Of a stretch of DNA of 64,000 bases, positions 674-16,726 are shown in pieces (positions within the stretch are counted from its first letter, which is position 1; the number at the start of each line of letters is the position of its first letter). The notes below the pieces were generated by a model that was given only the letters and a program-made list of their open reading frames with translations, ran no database searches and was not told where the DNA came from. A program made the position numbers and the translations under genes. This DNA comes from a virus (lineage: Duplodnaviria; Heunggongvirae; Uroviricota; Caudoviricetes): the IMG/VR virus record IMGVR_UViG_3300030339_000005. The stretch is one strand, 5' to 3'.

Positions 674-2011
674 ATGAACACAGACGTAACACACGATGCC
701 ACTATTGATGAGGCTATGCAGGAAAGATCCAGCATAGAAACCTTAAGAGATAGTGCAAACAGAATTACTGGATATAGATTTAGCATTTTAGTACATGATA
801 AACCTACATTGTCTGGAGAGATGACACGTGAGGAAGTTGAGAAAATGTATAGATTGTATTCCCAAGAAGGAGCAAGTCTAACTCAACGTACAATCGTAAG
901 AGAATTTCCGAATTATACATTTCCGCAATTCAAAAAGATCCTTCGAGCTTTTAACATCACCAAATCGTCTGCTCCGTTAGCTCCTCATACTCTAGAGGAA
1001 CTTACAACGGAAGAGGCTGTAGAGATTGCTTTACAGAACAAAGAAAATGATTTCTTTAAGAAATTAGAGCAAGAAAGGGGTAAACGCACCGAACAGCGTT
1101 TAAAAGAAATTACAAAAGAGTATCAAACATTTAAAGAAAAGGCCAATGACTTTGAAGCCTTCTTCGCATCTTTAGACATTACTGCTCATATTGAAGCCAT
1201 TAGGCCTCAAGAAAATGCAGATAAAGTTATTGTGGTATATCTAAGTGATATGCACATTGGTGCTGATGTTAGTAGATATTCAATCTTTGCAAATGAGTAT
1301 AATGCAAAGGAAGTTAAGAAAAGATTAAACAAAGTACTTCAATCTGTTCTACAATTGGCTCAAATGACCGGAGCTACAGATATCATCGTATGTAATATTG
1401 GTGATTCTCTGGATGGATATGATGCCCAAACTACTAGAGGTGGGCATAATTTACCTCAAAATATGGATAATAAAGATCAACTAAAGAACTTTGTTCAACT
1501 AATGGTAGATTTCTTCGGAAGTCTTGCTAATAGTGGATACTTTATGTCGATTAAGTATTACTGTGTAGAAGGTGGTAATCATGACGGAGATTTTGGATAT
1601 GCTGCAAATTTTGCATTGCAATCCTATCTTCGTTCAGCTGGTATCGAAGCTGTGATATTTGACCAGTATATTGACCATTTCAAATATGGTAAACATACTT
1701 TTGTCCTATGTCATGGTAAAGATGCTAAGGATGTCTTTAAAAATATGCCTTTAGTTTTAAGTAAAGGTGTAGAAAATCAAATTGATGAATACTTAGACTA
1801 TCACAGTCTAAAAGGCAATATTCACTTTGTAAAAGGTGATTTGCACCAATCAGCAACCACTTATGGAAAGCGTTTCAGATACAAGTCTGTAGCTTCTTTA
1901 TTTGGCTCAAGTGCTTGGATTCATAAAAACTTTGGTAATACCAAAGCAGCTGTTGATATTGACATTATTGATGGAGATAAGATTTTGGAAACAAGAGTAA
2001 TTCTCAATTGA
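674..2011 (+). CDS. Calcineurin-like metallophosphoesterase with N-terminal helical/coiled-coil region
   Basis: Motifs SDMHIG, GDSLDG, GNHD, CHG and GDLH in canonical order; TGA stop. Confidence 0.85.
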   Translation: MNTDVTHDATIDEAMQERSSIETLRDSANRITGYRFSILVHDKPTLSGEMTREEVEKMYRLYSQEGASLTQRTIVREFPNYTFPQFKKILRAFNITKSSAPLAPHTLEELTTEEAVEIALQNKENDFFKKLEQERGKRTEQRLKEITKEYQTFKEKANDFEAFFASLDITAHIEAIRPQENADKVIVVYLSDMHIGADVSRYSIFANEYNAKEVKKRLNKVLQSVLQLAQMTGATDIIVCNIGDSLDGYDAQTTRGGHNLPQNMDNKDQLKNFVQLMVDFFGSLANSGYFMSIKYYCVEGGNHDGDFGYAANFALQSYLRSAGIEAVIFDQYIDHFKYGKHTFVLCHGKDAKDVFKNMPLVLSKGVENQIDEYLDYHSLKGNIHFVKGDLHQSATTYGKRFRYKSVASLFGSSAWIHKNFGNTKAAVDIDIIDGDKILETRVILN

Positions 2012-8281: not shown

Positions 8282-9342
8282 AGAAAACAATAAGTGCAGA
8301 AATTGTAGCTGATTCTATTAACTCTATGGGAGATAGAATCACTTCATTTCTGTTAACTTATCCACGAATTATACATGCAGAACTAATGACTCATAGAGTT
8401 TTTAGTAGAAATTCTGCATCATCAAGGGCTATACCATTTGAGAAAATGGTTGAATCTGTCAGAACAGATCCTTTTATTCCTATTGCTTGGCAAGTTGCTC
8501 ACAAAGGAATGCAAGGAACAAAATATTTAACTAAATCAGCACATGTTGATTTTCGACGTAGTCAATGGTTAGTAGCTAGGGATTCTGCAATTAAACATGC
8601 TGAAGAATTAAACTCAACTATGGGAGTTAGATATTCTATGGATGAAGATCCGCATCAATTAGCTGATACTTCAGTTACAAAACAACTTTGTAATCGTCTT
8701 TTAGAACCTTTCATGTGGCATACTGTTCTTATAACAGCTACTGAATTTGAAGGATTCTTTGAACTTCGTTGTCCTAAATATTTTGGGCAATATAAAAGTT
8801 GGAAAGATGCAGTATCTTCAGGAGCTACACTTGAAACTCCCTTTGAGTTTCGAATGAACGATTCACAAGCAGAAATTCATATTCAAGCTCTTGCAGAAGC
8901 AATGTGGGATGCGAGAAATGAATCTATTCCTATTAAGCTAAAAGATGGAGATTGGCATATTCCTTTTGGGGATAGAATTACTCTACCTCCGACCATTCCA
9001 ATTGATGCAGGATATACTCTAGAGCAGGGTGTTGCAATTCGAAAAGTTAAAATAGCAACAGCACGATGTGCTAGATTATCCTATATGACATTTGATGGAG
9101 AAATTAATTATGTCAAAGACATTGGTTTACATGATACTTTGCTAGCTAGTCATCACATGAGTCCGTTTGAACACTGTGCTCGTGCAATGAATTCTGATGA
9201 GTATATTCAATTTGATAGAGCCTCTCCACGCATAATCAATGGAAAAATGAATAAGTTTTTTGTTGATATTGAACAGGCTTGGTGTAATAATTTTAGGGGA
9301 TTTATTCCTTATAGATGGTTTATTGAAAATGGAACCAGTTAA
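8269..9342 (+). CDS. thyX: FAD-dependent thymidylate synthase (ThyX/Thy1)
   Basis: ELMTHRVFSRNSASSRAIP signature; ARCARLSY; HMSPFEH. Confidence 0.9.
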   Translation: MVGLKKTISAEIVADSINSMGDRITSFLLTYPRIIHAELMTHRVFSRNSASSRAIPFEKMVESVRTDPFIPIAWQVAHKGMQGTKYLTKSAHVDFRRSQWLVARDSAIKHAEELNSTMGVRYSMDEDPHQLADTSVTKQLCNRLLEPFMWHTVLITATEFEGFFELRCPKYFGQYKSWKDAVSSGATLETPFEFRMNDSQAEIHIQALAEAMWDARNESIPIKLKDGDWHIPFGDRITLPPTIPIDAGYTLEQGVAIRKVKIATARCARLSYMTFDGEINYVKDIGLHDTLLASHHMSPFEHCARAMNSDEYIQFDRASPRIINGKMNKFFVDIEQAWCNNFRGFIPYRWFIENGTS

Positions 9343-9856
9343 TTTACAAGAGTTGAAATCAATTAACGAGTTATTTGATTTCTTTGTCCACCATCACTAT
9401 AAATGTAGTAAATGTAGTTCAGCAGTCTTTTACTCTATGGGAGAAGTGCAAAGTGAATTTGATGTTGATTATATAGATTGCCCATTCTGTGGACAATCTC
9501 AAGCAATTGATATTGATGAGTTTTTAATTAAAGGGCGAAAGCAATCTTTAATTACTAAGAAGAAACTTTTGCTTGCAGAAGATTGGGTCAGGGTTGTTCA
9601 TGGAGGACGAGGTGATTATATTGAACTTGATAGAGAACAAATACTCTCTAATCTTGAGAATAAGTTTACTAAAAAATCCGACCAGGAGCTTTTAAATGGA
9701 GAGCATTTTTATGAATGGTTATATCCATCTGGAGATCCTGATTTAAAAATCTATAGACAGCTCAAAACAGTGACCTATGCTGATTATAAGATAGGAAAAT
9801 ACTATATCAGTGTTGACGAATTTCCAGATTTTAAAGATCCTGAAAAATTATTTTAA
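9329..9856 (+). CDS. Hypothetical protein with N-terminal Zn ribbon
   Basis: CSKC...CPFC followed by HGGRGDYIE...KIYRQLKTVTYADYKIG. Confidence 0.65.
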   Translation: MEPVNLQELKSINELFDFFVHHHYKCSKCSSAVFYSMGEVQSEFDVDYIDCPFCGQSQAIDIDEFLIKGRKQSLITKKKLLLAEDWVRVVHGGRGDYIELDREQILSNLENKFTKKSDQELLNGEHFYEWLYPSGDPDLKIYRQLKTVTYADYKIGKYYISVDEFPDFKDPEKLF

Positions 9857-9857
9857 A

Positions 9858-10160
9858 ATGAATAAAGAAGAATTTGTTAAGTTATTAGCAACCTACGAGA
9901 AATGTTTAACTAACATTCATGAGTTGTATAATGTCGGTGTTGATGTTACTGAGTCTAAATATGCCCTCCCAATTGAACCTATAGTGGACATTATTCTAGG
10001 TTCGATCTATGACGAAAATGGTGTAGATTGGATTAATTGGTTTATTTATGAAACCAATTTTGGTAAACGAGCTGAAATGGAAGCTCATGACGAATATGGT
10101 GCTCGTATTTGTCAAACAGTTGAAGCTTTGTATGATTTTGTAGAGCAATATAAAAAGTAA
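9858..10160 (+). CDS. Hypothetical protein
   Basis: DWINWFIYETNFG motif; TAATG-coupled to the next gene. Confidence 0.7.
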   Translation: MNKEEFVKLLATYEKCLTNIHELYNVGVDVTESKYALPIEPIVDIILGSIYDENGVDWINWFIYETNFGKRAEMEAHDEYGARICQTVEALYDFVEQYKK

Positions 10161-10576
10161 TGAAGAAACTTATTTGTACAAATGATGGTCGCAATTACAC
10201 TTGTGACCACGACACATTAAATCCTTTAGTTTCTTGTGGGGCTTGCTCATATCTTAAACAATATGAGGAACAAGCTCCACAGATAGATGGGGGAGCATTA
10301 AGATATAACGCTGGTAAGCGTAAATGGGATTTAGTACACTATAAATCTCTTGAGCCGATGATTGAAGTTTTGGAGTTTGGTGCTCTAAAGTATGCTCCAA
10401 GAAATTGGCAAAAGTCAATGAATACAAGAGAGATTTTGAATTCAATGCAAAGACATCTTGCAGCTTTAATGGATGGTGAAGAAGTAGATGCTGATTCTGA
10501 AATTTCCCATATGGGACATATTCAGGCAAACGCTATGTTTTATAATTATCACCATGAAAGGAAAGGCGAAGTTTAA
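10160..10576 (+). CDS. DUF5664 dATP/dGTP diphosphohydrolase-like protein
   Basis: RYNAGKRKWDL...EVLEFGALKYAPRNWQK...SMQRHL...GEEVDADS...HMGHIQANAMF. Confidence 0.85.
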   Translation: MKKLICTNDGRNYTCDHDTLNPLVSCGACSYLKQYEEQAPQIDGGALRYNAGKRKWDLVHYKSLEPMIEVLEFGALKYAPRNWQKSMNTREILNSMQRHLAALMDGEEVDADSEISHMGHIQANAMFYNYHHERKGEV

Positions 10577-10739
10577 GCTTGTTGCAGGCGATCCTGTTTT
10601 ATTATGTTCTAAATGTAGTAAAATTATAAAGTACGCAAAGTACTTTTCAGAAGAAGACTGGCAAGCGTATAAAGGAGAGATTAAGCTCTCTCCACAGATT
10701 TGTGATGAATGTTTAGAAAAAGAACTAGATTATGAGTGA
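10554..10739 (+). CDS. Small Zn-binding hypothetical protein
   Basis: LLCSKCSKIIK...CDEC; ends TGA TAA. Confidence 0.65.
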   Translation: MKGKAKFKLVAGDPVLLCSKCSKIIKYAKYFSEEDWQAYKGEIKLSPQICDECLEKELDYE

Positions 10740-10977
10740 TAAGCACAAAGAATCAATATTACCAATCGACTGGTTTGGTTGGGGTGGAAGATTTCCGCAA
10801 TTTTATTTTTACTCAGTAACTTTTACTGAAGACTTTGGTGTTTTCAAGAAAGGTGATGAGTGTACAGATTTAAAAGTGAATTATGAAGAAGGAGTCGTTG
10901 AAGAAATGCTAGATGGTGTTTTAGGGCGAACTCAAAAATTCAGATGTTTTCCAATTCCGGATGATAAAATTGACTAA
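10732..10977 (+). CDS. Hypothetical protein
   Basis: 81 aa, TAA stop; last gene of the + strand block. Confidence 0.65.
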   Translation: MSDKHKESILPIDWFGWGGRFPQFYFYSVTFTEDFGVFKKGDECTDLKVNYEEGVVEEMLDGVLGRTQKFRCFPIPDDKID

Positions 10978-10984
10978 AAATTTT

Positions 10985-11206
10985 AATGTAGATACGCTTT
11001 AGAATCCCTGAGTGGCATTTTCTATGCTGTAGTGGAGACTTATATATTTCTTATCTTGAAAGTCCAAGGTTGGTCTTAAAATGAGTCAAGTGTATTTTAC
11101 ATTAAAGTAACAGTTTGGTCATGGCAAATTCTTATTGCGAAGGAATTTCAATAAGGATTTCGTAGTCATTGGGACTGCCGTTTATAGAAATGTCTGTAAA
11201 CAATTT
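10985..11206 (+). ncRNA. Candidate structured non-coding RNA or leader
   Basis: No convincing ORF. Consecutive hairpins: GCAT/ATGC, GACTT/AAGTC, AGTGTA/TACATT, ATTCTTATTG/CAATAAGGAT, GTAGTC/GACTGC, GTTTATAGA/TCTGTAAAC. Several contain G-U pairs that work only on the + strand. Confidence 0.5.
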
Positions 11207-11248
11207 AGGGGAACTACGATGTGAATCGTGGTTCCCCTTATTTTTTTC
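11207..11248 (+). terminator. Intrinsic terminator closing the early block and RNA candidate
   Basis: AGGGGAACTACGAT-GTGA-ATCGTGGTTCCCCT, 14 bp with a GNRA loop, followed by a T7 tract. Confidence 0.9.
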
Positions 11249-11281
11249 ATTCATTATATAAGTTATTTCCAATAATACTAT

Positions 11282-11289
11282 TACTTTTG
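11282..11289 (+). promoter_or_regulatory. Possible Bacteroidota sigma70-type -7 element
   Basis: TACTTTTG fits TAnnTTTG, 26 nt upstream of ATG 11316; no clear -33 TTTG. Confidence 0.4.
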
Positions 11290-11315
11290 TAAGTAACTGT
11301 AAAATCACTATAACT

Positions 11316-12002
11316 ATGGATGACTCAAAATTCGCTACTTTTAAACCTATAATAAATCAAGTATCTCAAGATAGAAATGAAATGGCTGCATATTATGCAG
11401 CTAATAATCTAACTCCTGATAATGATTATTTATCTAGATATCTTTCTGGAATTACGCCTACTATACCTGCGGTTCAGACAGCACAGAAAATATCTCCTGT
11501 GCCTCAAGTTCAAAGTATTAGAGACTTGCTTAATCAAGCAATAGCAAAACGAGTTGCTGTAAATCCACCAATTGCAGCTAATGTAGAAAATGTTGCTTTA
11601 GATGATAGACCTAAAGAAGCTATGAATTTCTTTATAAGAAAAGGTCTTAAAAAAGAATGAGCTGCTGGAATTGCTGGAAATTTATATCATGAATCTGGAT
11701 TTGATACTACTGTTCCTGGAGATCATGGATCTGCTTATGGGTTAGCTCAATGAAGAGGTGCTCGTAGAGAAGGTTTAAATCAATTTGCTAAAGTACATAA
11801 TACTGATCCCGCTGCTTTTGGAACTCAATTAGAATATATCTATCATGAATTACAGAATGGTGAAAAAGATGCATTTGCTGCACTTCAAAGTACAAATAAT
11901 GTAAGAGATGCTGCAAGAGCCTTTGCCTTAAAATTTGAACGGCCTAAAGTTTATAATACTGAAAGAGCTGATACAGCCGAACTTTATTATAAAAATTGAT
12001 AA
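11316..12002 (+). CDS. Phage tail lysozyme (Phage_lysozyme2-like) with in-frame TGA=Trp
   Basis: Reading through TGA 11658 and TGA 11751 gives KE-W-AAGIAGNLYHESG...YGLAQ-W-RGARR...QLEYIYHEL...FALKFERP; ends TGA TAA. Confidence 0.9.
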
Positions 12003-12048
12003 AAATAAAATAGCCCGACCACTTAATTGTGATCGGGCTATTTTTTTT
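12001..12048. terminator. Bidirectional terminator between convergent lysozyme and late operon
   Basis: AAAATAGCCCGACCAC-TTAATT-GTGATCGGGCTATTTT with an A tract on one side and a T tract on the other. Confidence 0.85.
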
Positions 12049-15000
12049 AAGATTGTTGATCTGTATCAATGAATTCAAAAGCTTTTACGTCTGTTAATAA
12101 TCGTTTGATTGTCTTATCTCCATCCATAGTATCTTTAACATCACCCATAACTTTTAAACCATAAGTTCAGAATGCAGGCTCACTTCGAAGATTACCAAAA
12201 GTATTATTCCAAAGCATAGCTTCATTAATCATTTTTTTATTTACAGCCATTGAGAATGCTTTTGTTTCAGCAGTCATACCCTCAGGATTATCTCCAAAAG
12301 CAGCTTCTAATAATAATTTAAATAAACAAAAAACTAAATACATAAGAGCTCCATCAGCTAATCCATATTTTACACGATTAAGTCTAAGTTCATCTTGTGT
12401 ATTAATATCTTCTGCAATTTCGGTAAATGATTTATGATCACATAATCCTTTATAAGTGTCTCGAATAGTTTTAGCCATTGAGAATACAACACCTTCATGA
12501 GGTAGTCCTGTTCACTCAATTAAAGGATCGCCTGTATTTTCTCTTACATGGTCAAACCCAACAATTTCTCCAGTATTTTCATCATGGATTGCTTTTCTCC
12601 ATAATTTAATTTTCTTTCCATCAACTAACTCAGTAGCTTGTCTATGTACTCCAGTAATTTTAGTAGATTCGTCTACGGGTTTACCAAATCACATATCCAT
12701 TTTACCTGGTCAGAATTGCATAAATTGAAGATATAATAATCCAAATACAGTGTAATGTCAAGAAGGAGATTGTTCTTTATCATAATATCCATATACTGTA
12801 TCAGTATAAGATTTATAACTAGATCGTTCTTTTTCAGAATAAGCTTGATCAATTAAATCCTCTTCTCCAAATTCTTTCATCTTGGCAATACGTCTTTGAT
12901 CATTAATTTCTTCTCTAATAACATCATACATTTGTTTTTGTTCATTATATTTTGTATCAGTTGCAGAAGGTAAAAAGATATACTTACCACTAGGAGCTCT
13001 ATATTGTTCTCTTACACTTAAGTAATGAGAGAATCGTTTATCCTTTCTAGGATCATATGTAATAAAACCATTCTTATCTAAAGTGTGGGCATCCATACTT
13101 TCATCATGAATCATTTTAGCAACAAATAAAGACATACGATTGTAATAATCTGGAATTGTATTACAAGCATACATATAAGGATGTAATCCCATAAATATTC
13201 CTCGACGATTTGTTTGAATCTTTCTTGCGTATGAATTTAAATCCATATTAGCAAAGGCATAGAATTTATTTAATGCTTCTATTTTATTAAATTCTAATGA
13301 CATTTGCTTATCAATGGTTAACATCATTCCTAATGCTTTTCCATAATCTGCAAATGTAAATTGATCTTTTCCAAAGAATTGAGTAGCAGCTAATGCAGCC
13401 CCTTTATACATTCCAATAGCTAACTCTTTAACTAAAATGGCAGGTCTAAAAGCAAGCATTTGTGCAGTTGTAATTTTCTTAGCAACACCGGCAGCACTAA
13501 TAATATCTGAGAATTCTTTATCAATAATTGGTCTATCATAAAAGGCCATATCAATTCTTTCTTGTATGTATGTAAGTGCCTTAGAAACATCTTTATTTTG
13601 TTTAGCTCCAGTAAGTTGAATTCATCATGCATAATCATTTAAAACTGGCAGAATATTATCAACATATTTTTTTCTAACTTTTTCTTGAATTACTCTATGT
13701 GCAATAGCATCTAAATCAATTTCAAAACTCCAATCACCACGATCTTCAATTTGTTGAGCAATATATGAAGCAGACTGCTTTCCATATATTTCATACATTT
13801 CATAATAACCTTTTGAGACTTTTTCAGCTTCATTTCGATCTTTAGGATCCAATTCTCTGCCATCAACAAAATCTCTAACATTAGCTCCAAAAGTTCTTGC
13901 TGCGCGTTTTAGACCTTTGCCTCCTTCAGCTACAACTCCTTTATATTGACTTATAGTATTAGTTCAAATTAATGGCATTCTGAAGTACTCTCCATTTTCA
14001 ATATTAAACATAATTTTATCGACTCATTTCTTTGGAGCTGTTTTTTGAATAGTTTCAATTGAAGTTGGGTCGATTTTTTCTGCTATATCATTAGGAATAT
14101 GCATTAATTGTCTTTGAATTTTAAAAAGGATGTTAGTTAAATACTTTCTTTGTGCAGGAAGCATTACATTATCTTTTTCAAAATTATATGGATTTTTAAC
14201 CTGTCATTTATTTGATAGTTTATTTCCTTCATGTAATCATAGTGGATTAAAGTGCTTACGATAATCACCTATCATTTGTTGTTCTAATTGAGTATAATGA
14301 ATATCTGCATAATACTCAGTAGTGTCTCCATGTACTTGAGAACCTAATTTATCAATTTCATGCCGCATTAAACTGATACTACCTGTAATAATTCCATTGA
14401 TTGTAAACAAATCTTTTGAAGCAATTTTATCAGGTGTTGTTGTTTTCAAACCACCAATAATACCAAGAATCTTTTCTTGTTCTTTATTGTATTCATCTAA
14501 ATTATCAGAATAGAATGCTTTTAAAACACCAAAAAAATCTTGATATTTAATAGCATAATCACGCAATCCAGTGACATCTCCTTCAGGAACAATTCCATAA
14601 CGAGTTAATATTAAGCTTTTAACTAATGCATATAAATATTCAGCCGGTCTTTTAAAGTCTACTGCCGAATTAAATGTTTTTTCACCTAAACCAAAGAGTT
14701 CTCTTAACCCTTTTTCTGCAGCTCTTAAATCTTCAAGAGGAGCGTCAAGCATATTACCTCTAATATTGGCAAAAAGATTATAAACAGATTCTTTTTCTTC
14801 AGAATCATAAGTACGTAGTACTCCATTAATAGCTTTGAAAACAACATCTTTAAATTCAGGAAGATCAGAATCTTTATTAATTCTAATTTGATAATTTTGT
14901 TTAGCAGCCACCTCTTGAAAATCACTAAATGCTTCTCGAATATTTCGTTGCTTACTTACACCTTGATCTACGTCTAAGATTACAATATCTTGAATCTTAT

Positions 15001-16726
15001 TAAGATTTAGTTTTAAATCATCATACATTTCATTGAGTACAGCAAACACTTTAAAATATTCTGCATCTAAATATGTATATTTATTATCATATTTACTTAA
15101 GAAATTATTAGCAGTAATAGCTATAGGAATGATTTGTCCAGAAGAAGTATTACGTAATAGAATAATTCCTAAACTATCTAACTCTGAAACTGATTCAATA
15201 ACTGCATATTGTCCATTAAGGTATGGTTGCAGTGCATGTCTTGCTTGTTTTTGTTGATTTTCACTTGATAATTCTAATTTATTAGCGTTTCCAGCATTAA
15301 TAGCTACTGTAATTGCACTCTTTAATTGAATGACATTTCTATTATCCTTATTATCAAGAAAGGATAAGAATTGGTCTGCAATGTCTCCAGCTTTTTTAAC
15401 TTTTTCTGCTTCAGTAAAGCTCGTAAAATTCTTAATTGCAATACGATTTGATTTAGCTGTAATTGGACTGTCTTCATCCAATGGATTTTCAGTAACAAAT
15501 TGATCTAAATCAGCTTTGTTAACAGTAAAGTAAGCTTGCTTTAGGATATCCTCAACTAATTTTTCTCTATGATATTCTCTACGAGTTGTTCTAATTTTAT
15601 ACTTTGGTAATAAAGAGACTAATGTATTAATTAATCGAAGTTCTCTATCTGGATTAGTTTCTAATTTAATAGAGTCTGGAATAAATTTATTTGCAATCTT
15701 AAACAACATACCATCATTAAAAATTAATCCAGCTTTTGGATCACCATTTCTAACTTGTTCATTACCTTTAGTCAATGCTTTAGGATCTAATTTTCCTCCT
15801 ACTAAGCTTCCAGTTTCAATTGGAATAATAGTTAAATCAGAGTGTGAAACATCAGTATATTGTCCTAATAAAGCCCTTTCAAAAGCTAATTGGTAATCAG
15901 ATTGTAATTTCTTAGCGCTGTCTCACTTTTCAAAACCTCTTTTAGAGCTTTTAATTGAATAAATATGAGGAACTCCTTCGGAAGTTACTGTAACAAAATC
16001 AATATGTCCTGAGATATGAAAAGGAGGCTCTCCTTCAGTTGTTAATAAAATATCAAACATTGGAGTTCCTCTAGTAAATATTACTTTAGAAATTTCGTCA
16101 ACAATACTATTTAATTTTGTATTTAAGTCTGTTGCTTGTTCAGCTTCAATTAAGTTCTCTGCAACAGCTTCTTTCACTGCAGTAGCTATTGTAAGTTTTG
16201 ATTGAGCTCGTGGGTCATTACTTTCAAAGTCATCAGCAATATTTCCAACTGCATTCTTAATTGCAATAATTAGTTTATTAGTTTTTTCTTCAGCTTCCAT
16301 TACTTCAAGAATATCTTTTTCATATTCTATAGATTCAGACAAAGTTGGATCTGCCTTAATTTCTGCTAAAGTCATATCTTTTAAACTATCTTCTGTATGT
16401 CCTGATTCAACCAATTTATTTACAACTGATTGATACACACGTTTTGGTGCATCATATTCAGGACTTAATCTAGAAGCTGATATACCCATAGGTTTGAGGG
16501 TTTCCTCATTTTGTTGACTAATAAATTTAGTCAATGGAATTCTTTCAAGCTTACCTATCTCATCTCTACGAACTATTTGCTTATGTATTGATTCTAAAGT
16601 AGAATCTTCAGCATTAGAACTATAGATATTAGAGTTTGCTAATGGAGTTTTTGATTTATAAAACTCCATTAGCACTCTTGCTAAAGATAGTGAATCCTGG
16701 TCGTTTACACTATATGTACATGCCAT
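12047..16726 (-). CDS. Giant cargo/ejection-type protein (about 1559 aa, code 4) with a degenerate PD-(D/E)xK-like domain
   Basis: Fragments ending at 15923, 14237, 13625, 12758 and 12167 share one frame and end in TGA; hand-read gaps are open; TAA at 12047; GHIDFVTV...PHIYSIK. Confidence 0.8.

Follow-up and report, generated by a model that had tools for sequence, protein, structure and literature searches.

Does an in-frame TGA in a phage lysin gene act as a gate, withholding the enzyme until the codon can be read as tryptophan (Trp), or is it simply the spelling of a gene that is translated late? The question is raised by a predicted peptidoglycan-hydrolase gene in a stretch of 64,000 nucleotides (the window), which corresponds to bases 59425–123424 of a phage record that is 178,320 bp long and has a GC content of 32.5%. 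In this genome the − strand late block (71.4 to 154.6 kb) contains 220 TGA versus 60 TGG codons and giant ORFs of up to 4301 codons. In the + strand block (1 to 70.7 kb), which contains 230 TGG, what look like in-frame TGAs come from reading past a stop or from extended starts. The + strand genes of the window include a dUTPase, a DNA ligase, a ThyX-like protein, and a dATP/dGTP diphosphohydrolase. Apart from the lysin, none of the + strand ORFs in the window needs TGA read-through, and the code-4 "extensions" at 674–2089, 9239–9856, and 10488–10742 either run past a TGA stop or begin at an upstream start. The initial annotation described the lysin as the only + strand gene to use TGA as Trp. 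This holds within the window but not genome-wide, where four other + strand ORFs carry in-frame TGA, namely two GIY-YIG endonucleases, one HNH endonuclease, and a 603-aa ORF. ARAGORN predicts 27 tRNAs in the genome, including tRNA(tca) at 161242–161337 on the − strand and a tRNA(cta). It found no tRNA in the window, and the suppressor is located outside it. The tRNA(UCA) predicted by ARAGORN would read TGA as Trp.

The phage appears to resemble the Zeta-type group of crAss-like phages, whose genomes range from 145 to 192 kb. The likeness to members such as Lera covers size, tRNA set, gene order, and recoding, and the gene order common with Lera comprises the dUTPase, the DNA ligase, and a convergent ~1540-aa "exonuclease V" gene. 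A search of GenBank phage DNA with positions 9000–14000 of the window gave no match, and ten late proteins gave none in PHROGs. Publications on crAss-like and other gut phages already describe recoded late and lysis genes (Yutin et al. 2021, PMC7886860; Borges et al., 10.1101/2021.08.26.457843; Lera, PMC12386605). Homing endonuclease recoding, suppressor tRNAs, and recoding as a block on premature lytic proteins have likewise been described for these phages. As in other TGA-recoded crAss-like phages, the early and replication genes here use the standard code, TGA encodes Trp in virion, lysin, and homing endonuclease genes, and the phage has its own tRNA(UCA), here accompanied by a tRNA(CUA). 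The lysin is unlike those of other recoded crAss-like phages in its setting, as it forms a single insulated cassette opposite the strand of the late block and does not belong to a lysis cluster. Lera, moreover, has no lysin at the equivalent junction.

On sequence evidence, the lysin gene is real and its full translation needs TGA to be read as Trp, because of its match to PF18013, its invariant E126, S127, and W146 residues, and its likeness to gp13 of phi29. The code-4 product matches PF18013 (Phage_lysozyme2, "Phage tail lysozyme") with 115.8 bits (E 2.3e-33) against a curated gathering score of 28.2 bits. The match covers residues 100–226 and profile positions 4–138 of 140, runs through both internal TGAs, and was returned again by a six-frame search of the genome. 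The family suggested in the initial annotation is therefore confirmed by the profile itself. All three family motifs are present, namely GNLYHES with E126, GLAQ-W146 with the Trp written as TGA, and FERP. A sequence search also found phi29 gp13 (3CSR, E 8e-4), aligning E126 with gp13 residue 45. In the AlphaFold2 model, residues 95–228 have pLDDT values of 84–97, one loop excepted, and the best Foldseek matches are 3CSR and 3CSQ (probability 1.00, TM 0.65 by target). The founding PF18013 structure, gp13 (3CSQ/3CSR), thus shares with the lysin the motifs GNxxxES, G(L/I)xQW, and (F/Y)ERP and an all-helical fold. The two differ in that gp13 is a tail-tip protein of a Gram-positive podophage with a C-terminal M23 peptidase, whereas the lysin has a novel N-terminal module and a linker instead.

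Table. Features of the lysin locus and in-frame TGA codons in orthologous loci (window positions unless stated otherwise; L numbers denote individual loci).
Feature	Position	Strand	Remarks
Intrinsic terminator	11207..11247	+	14-bp GC-rich hairpin + T-run; ends the upstream + operon/structured RNA and insulates the lysin unit
−7 box	11282..11291	+	TACTTTTG (11282-11289) then TA; Bacteroidota sigma-A type; start 34 nt 5' of ATG
Lysin gene	11316..12002	+	ATG start, 228 sense codons with TGA=Trp, then TAA (12000)
N-terminal module, ~residues 1-45	11316..11450	+	M..FATFKPI..YY..N..P; conserved
Pro/Thr/Gln-rich linker, ~residues 46-94	11451..11597	+	Poorly conserved; mostly low-confidence model
phi29-gp13-like lysozyme domain (PF18013), ~residues 95-227	11598..11996	+	Pfam E 2.3e-33; 3CSR
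In-frame TGA, codon 115	11658..11660	+	Lineage-specific Trp; L001 = TGG, family mostly Gln
Catalytic-motif Glu126 (HESG)	11691-11693	+	Aligned with phi29 gp13 residue 45
In-frame TGA, codon 146	11751..11753	+	Trp of GLAQW, invariant in the family
TGA-TAA tandem	11997..12002	+	Codon 228 TGA, then stop; otherwise in L001 only
Bidirectional terminator	12007..12052	.	Common to the lysin and the convergent 1559-aa late gene
1559-aa late gene	12047-16726	-	Convergent with the lysin; shares the terminator
GH24 lysozyme	146935-147321 (genome)	late block	Single-domain, two TGAs; second muramidase
In-frame TGA codons, window	codons 115, 146, 228
In-frame TGA codons, L001	codons 145, 227
In-frame TGA codons, L065	codon 156
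In-frame TGA codons, L071	codons 152, 177
In-frame TGA codons, L011	codon 141
In-frame TGA codons, L041	codon 122		Within the glucosaminidase domain
In-frame TGA codons, L073	codons 37, 216, 224		SLT-domain version
In-frame TGA codons, L074	codon 151
In-frame TGA codons, L002, L008, L072	none

The open code-4 frame contains three TGAs and not a single TGG. The second TGA was proposed in the initial annotation to be the family-conserved Trp of GLAQ-W, and an alignment of 12 homologues agrees, with W146 as invariant as E126 and S127. TGA is also used at this position in L001, L011/L012, and L074, and eight database entries end exactly at GLAQ, immediately before it. Codon 115 is TGG in L001, the closest orthologue (55% identity), while residue 115 is Gln in nearly all other family members (K-E-Q-A-A-G-I context). 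Non-Trp residues in homologues, to which the initial annotation had drawn attention as a point against its reading, are hence found at codon 115 and not at codon 146. A route from Gln to Trp at codon 115 by way of a stop codon was considered and dropped, as an ordinary Gln-Arg-Trp path exists. TGA-115 was also thought to mark the boundary of the lysozyme domain. However, residue 100 is the first of the Pfam envelope, and in the AlphaFold model the lysozyme helices start as early as residue 95. W115 sits in helix 113–127 of that model, which is helix 2 of the catalytic domain and also carries E126. The third TGA, in tandem with the TAA, was absent from the earlier description. It is a stop in the standard code and, if suppressed, would add one extra Trp ahead of the TAA. 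With a stop at either codon 115 or codon 146 most of the fold is lost, and the enzyme would therefore need the phage tRNA(UCA) for its synthesis.

The N-terminal module is modelled as two short helices (pLDDT ~80) and has no match in Pfam. Searches with tblastn found no paralogue elsewhere in the genome, a word-based search with residues 1–95 returned the query only, and an ESM Atlas look-up returned nothing. Scans of viral contigs found two relatives of the lysin and one of the N-terminal module. At the level of protein clusters, the module occurs in 53 and holds the N-terminal position in every one of them. Its partners are PF18013 (32 members), Glucosaminidase (4 detected), SLT (2), or an unassigned domain. 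In L011 and L041 the upstream DNA and the N-modules are near-identical, yet the catalytic domains differ, which indicates that the catalytic domain was swapped recently. Conceivably, the N-module defines an undescribed class of crAss-like phage lysins, whether for entry or for lysis, which swaps PF18013, glucosaminidase, and SLT domains at one fixed slot.

The initial annotation assigned the gene its own terminators and a possible host-type −7 element, and both are found here and are conserved in relatives. Eleven orthologous loci, the window included, were compared. A GC-rich hairpin with a T-run precedes the lysin in all of them, ~40–50 nt upstream of a TAnnTTTG box, which is present in ten and starts 27–39 nt ahead of the ATG. 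The flanks are otherwise too diverged for alignment, and this upstream pattern over diverged loci is a phylogenetic footprint of the putative signals. The bidirectional terminator after the lysin stop codon is also kept in relatives. In every sufficiently long locus the lysin is the last + strand gene and faces a ~1540-aa − strand gene.

Bacteroidota primary-sigma promoters have TAnnTTTG as their −7 element, as seen in B. thetaiotaomicron by dRNA-seq (PMC7366714). As in Bacteroidota and phi14:2 promoters, the −7 box lies at a conserved distance from the start codon, the predicted leader is short, and there is no Shine-Dalgarno sequence. Unlike in Bacteroidota promoters, a −33 element is not evident, with no clear −33 TTTG seen by eye in the upstream regions of the related loci. 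Genome-wide, the plain TAnnTTTG 8-mer occurs at chance frequency, and weight is given only to the cross-locus footprint and to the extended motif TAnnTTTGT[AG]. The latter has 38 copies in the genome, with 18 falling in the non-coding 10.6% of bases (p 1e-8). Twelve non-coding copies face a start codon 28–93 nt away. One of them precedes the lysin, and others stand before several metabolism genes of the + strand, before a single gene of the late block, and before the small unit with tRNA(UCA). Sigma-70 consensus promoters were also searched for and not used, as 20 were found versus 16.4 in shuffles. The conserved signals suggest that the lysin is transcribed by host RNA polymerase (RNAP) from its own promoter.

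A structured RNA at 10978–11250 (z −7.6) was previously taken for the leader of the lysin. It ends at the terminator 5' of the promoter box and, because this terminator precedes the promoter, lies outside the lysin mRNA if the TAnnTTTG promoter is used. The predicted lysin 5' leader is only ~20 nt and unstructured. Several relatives are without the structured RNA and have a short intergenic space, and an Rfam scan of the whole window returned no family.

The position of the lysin on the + strand had been equated with early transcription. This is not supported, given the terminator, which cuts the lysin off from upstream genes in 11/11 loci, and its own TAnnTTTG box in 10/11. Nor is it supported by the late-like synonymous codons described below or by phi14:2, the only crAss-like phage with transcript mapping (10.1101/2020.03.07.982082). 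In phi14:2, early genes are transcribed by an injected virion RNA polymerase from sites without a common motif, while middle and late genes are transcribed by host RNAP from sigma-70-like promoters (10.1101/2020.03.07.982082). The "early strand" is thus an assumption. A terminator separates the lysin from the upstream operon, and its promoter type is not early by analogy to phi14:2. Timing is read here from codon usage, promoter type, and analogy to phi14:2, which is a distant crAss-like phage. The same promoter type also stands before + strand metabolism genes and the tRNA(UCA) unit, so the promoter alone does not denote a late gene.

Codon usage places the lysin with the late genes. With Trp excluded, its synonymous-codon log-likelihood ratio (LLR) is +0.060, where late genes average 0.062 ± 0.034 and early genes −0.066 ± 0.082, and only 6% of early-gene chunks reach this value. 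The GH24 lysozyme of the late block is similarly late-like (+0.059). Across the 11 loci the lysins contain 12 internal TGA versus 16 TGG codons (43% TGA), although these loci are related and do not give independent counts. The + strand genes upstream of the lysins contain 0 TGA versus ~115 TGG and differ from them (p 3e-10). Adjacent late genes contain 71 TGA versus 57 TGG (55%), from which the small sample of lysins is not different (p 0.30). In the window phage both internal Trp codons are TGA, which has a probability of 0.62 at the 79% TGA share of the late block. With late-like codons and a TGA share like that of adjacent late genes, the lysin behaves as an ordinary member of the suppressor-dependent late-translated gene class, though on the other strand.

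The placement of TGA varies between relatives. A TGA at codon 115 is found in the window phage only, and no other locus has one in the part of the catalytic domain that precedes the catalytic Glu. L073 is the sole relative with a TGA 5' of the catalytic Glu, and there it lies in the N-terminal module; in the remaining recoded relatives the first TGA is 3' of this residue. L002 and L008 have TGA-recoded late neighbours and a TGA-free lysin, while the sequence of L072 is too short to include neighbours. The idea of a gate set before the catalytic ES is therefore correct in that TGA-115 precedes E126, but it does not extend to the relatives, whose positions vary and of which 3/11 are TGA-free. 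A conserved functional truncated fragment was considered and dropped, as the predicted products range from 36 to 155 residues (truncation codons 37 to 156). Among 49 database representatives of the N-module, 17 were cut short under code 11 immediately ahead of an expected Trp (GLAQ|W, ALETG|W, HGPR|W) and at least six more were called with TGA=W, so that in-frame TGA occurs in at least 23/49 clusters overall. Such frequent TGA fits a gene that is always translated with the suppressor present, and it does not distinguish drift from selected dependence. A selected suppressor dependence would likewise give rise to such a pattern.

The best explanation as a whole, and a probable one, is an insulated late-class cassette whose TGAs arose by drift. 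The cassette would be an autonomous monocistronic peptidoglycan-hydrolase unit, consisting of a terminator, a host sigma-A-type promoter, the gene, and a bidirectional terminator. It would occupy the junction between the + strand block for nucleotide metabolism and replication and the − strand virion block. Despite its strand, the lysin would belong to the late-translated, suppressor-dependent class, with its Trp codons spelled TGA as in the late block. Production of full-length enzyme would require the phage tRNA(UCA) in charged form, and under the standard code ribosomes would halt at codon 115 to leave an inactive fragment. The earlier proposal of a non-lytic fragment until TGA is suppressed is retained in so far as the enzyme is impossible in the standard code, and loses the early transcription that was attached to it. 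The TGAs may have appeared through ordinary TGG-to-TGA drift, tolerated in a late-translated gene. Suppressor dependence would then be a by-product or a safety margin, with no positioned gate.

The enzyme may act at either end of infection. The label of "the" lysis enzyme is uncertain and is withheld here, because a GH24 lysozyme is encoded in the late block and the characterised PF18013 relatives are virion enzymes; a role in entry is no less likely than one as a second endolysin. In GenBank phages, PF18013 is almost always part of tape-measure, tail-lysin, or DNA-transfer proteins. Tentatively, a virion-borne or ejected entry enzyme is slightly favoured. The other candidate role, that of a second endolysin which would attack the wall from inside as infection ends, aided by a holin encoded at another site, is also quite possible. 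The lysin is a small stand-alone protein of predicted muralytic function in its own unit, as endolysins often are, and modular swapping of catalytic domains is a typical endolysin trait. One PHROG match is annotated as an endolysin, and the annotation of the Zeta phage Lera has four lysins, three of which contain TGA, as does its holin (PMC12386605). However, the late block already has a canonical single-domain GH24 lysozyme. Tail, tape-measure, or DNA-transfer proteins make up nearly all annotated phage matches and include the closest solved structure. A search of the lysin for a signal peptide or transmembrane (TM) segment found neither, and it has no SAR segment. No holin or spanin candidate adjoins it, and no TM protein was found among the lysin neighbours in any locus. 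The swap partner SLT also points away from an endolysin, as SLT domains are typical of ejection proteins, for example T7 gp16. Of five other peptidoglycan-hydrolase families looked for in the genome, SLT, Amidase_2, and Glucosaminidase were not found. Whichever role applies, the protein would be required late, in agreement with the code class of the gene.

Under a selected code gate, host RNAP or read-through out of the + strand operon would transcribe the gene early or at all times, and its TGAs would be kept for lysis timing or as a safeguard, with a harmless fragment as the sole product until enough suppressor tRNA has built up. There is a precedent for a lysozyme transcribed before its translation is allowed in gene e of T4, in which the early transcript is reportedly untranslatable and the late transcript is translated, so that the block is lifted late and post-transcriptionally. 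The T4 block is an mRNA hairpin over the ribosome-binding site, whereas here it would be the genetic code. A gate of this kind agrees with the predicted strict need of the active enzyme for TGA suppression and with the frequency of TGA in the family, as 8/11 loci contain it and the 17/49 truncated entries stop before a conserved Trp. A delay while tRNA accumulates is also mechanistically possible, given that the lysin and the tRNA(UCA) unit share a host-type promoter, and the model has been published for recoded phages. Nonetheless, a selected gate is unlikely. Neither the number of TGAs (0–3) nor their position is conserved, with codon 115 being TGG in the nearest relative and otherwise mostly Gln. 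Three of 11 relatives have a TGA-free lysin, including L002 and L008, where late genes are recoded. The codon usage of the lysin is late-like, the gene is insulated from the upstream operon, and its product may not be a lysis enzyme. Nor does the TGA share exceed the share in adjacent late genes, in contrast to the "preferential recoding" described for certain lysis genes. Preferential TGA use relative to other late genes, as would be expected of a lysis timer under the Borges et al. model, was not seen, as the difference lies in the opposite direction (p 0.30).

A related proposal is a minimal two-part timer, in which the lysin cassette and the equally insulated tRNA(UCA) unit, both with host-type promoters, are transcribed by host RNAP. 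The enzyme would then appear only after charged suppressor tRNA has built up, and selection would keep one TGA or more in most members of the lysin family. This proposal, to which the possible N-module class is linked, is considered improbable. A decaying pseudogene with true nonsense mutations, to which the two breaks in the standard-code frame might point, is effectively refuted, since the frame has zero TAA or TAG across 228 codons despite the 32.5% GC genome, the Pfam match spans both internal TGAs and one of these coincides with an invariant Trp, the identical protein occurs on at least 24 contigs (many ~178 kb; index of 40 blocks), the orthologues are conserved with their signals intact, and the genome has 220 TGA in long late ORFs along with its own tRNA(UCA).

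The dependence of a recoded lysin on TGA suppression is a further case of a published phenomenon. The locus adds a little to this. Its recoded gene forms an insulated unit of its own on the strand that otherwise keeps to the standard code, muralytic domains are exchanged at a conserved slot downstream of a new N-terminal module, and the comparison of relatives indicates that TGA placement in the lysin is not conserved. The N-module with its interchangeable wall-cutting domains provides a modest new annotation handle, and code-11 pipelines shorten about one third of the database entries for this gene. If the code gate were true, the locus would offer a handy bench test of the lysis-timing hypothesis, with one promoter, one gene, two to three TGAs, and a separate tRNA unit. 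On the preferred reading of a late-class cassette, recoding tracks the time of translation independently of the DNA strand, and the placement of TGA looks like drift in a permissive gene class, unlike engineered gating.

The head of the - strand block is written in the standard code. It comprises eight ORFs, lying between the recoded late block and the unit of tRNA(UCA), the phage suppressor tRNA that reads TGA. Across these eight ORFs there are 14 TGG codons, and TGA is practically absent. The tRNA(UCA) unit is laid out as a TATATTTG -7 box (a Bacteroidota-type promoter element), a 70-aa ORF without TGA, then the tRNA itself (96 nt) and a terminator hairpin. Divergent from this unit, a TAACTTTG box is the predicted promoter of a 603-aa ORF, for which no Pfam match was found.

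HNH and GIY-YIG homing endonucleases with in-frame TGAs sit within the standard-code half, the + strand early and replication block that uses TGG for Trp, and a GIY-YIG gene of a relative has five TGA and no TGG codons. The presence of TGA in these endonucleases agrees with Borges et al. (10.1101/2021.08.26.457843).

Features inside and outside the window, with positions in the window, the whole phage genome, or the named locus
Feature	Position	Strand	Remarks
Gene ending in TGA	window 674-2011	+	only + strand gene in window with TGA end
MazZ-like dATP/dGTP diphosphohydrolase	window 10160-10576	+	PF18909, E 2e-25
Structured stretch	window 10978-11250	+	273 nt, ORF-free
Convergent late gene, 1559 aa	window 12047-16726	-	12 TGA
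Adenylosuccinate-synthetase homologue, candidate PurZ	genome 11361-12119 (locus L075)	+	PF00709, E 6e-36
HNH and GIY-YIG homing endonucleases	genome 27986-28465, 31912-32526, 46607-47257	+	1-4 in-frame TGAs
Eight standard-code ORFs	genome 154620-161081	-	outside window
tRNA(UCA) unit	genome 161160-161600 (locus L066)	-	outside window; own small unit
603-aa ORF	genome 161817-163628	+	2 in-frame TGAs
GIY-YIG gene of a relative	L065 149-850		
Peptidase_M15_4 gene	L073 1287-1805	+	in + strand block of relative

Upstream of the lysin, the PF18013 lysozyme gene, lies a structured stretch that folds at -89.4 kcal/mol (z -7.6 vs shuffles) and whose 3' end is the terminator preceding the lysin promoter. 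The longer spacer of one relative (L001) aligns to it only loosely, and relatives with short spacers have no counterpart. The convergent late gene adjoins the lysin in all relatives, where it encodes 1534-1558 aa. Its product has no Pfam or PHROG match here; one relative's counterpart gives a weak PDDEXK_1 match, and that of Lera, a published Zeta phage, is annotated 'exonuclease V' (PMC12386605). The repertoire of wall-degrading enzymes varies among related phages, as one (L073) carries a Peptidase_M15_4 gene a few genes upstream of an SLT-type version of the lysin cassette.

The co-occurrence of a MazZ-like protein and a candidate PurZ in one crAss-like phage genome hints, from homology, at a possible pathway for 2-aminoadenine (Z-base) DNA.

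TGA is the terminal codon of 11 of the 106 + strand ORFs overall. The ATG of the gene following the single case in the window, at 2013, lies one base past that TGA. If this TGA were suppressed, the protein would gain 26 residues, up to the TAG at 2087-2089.
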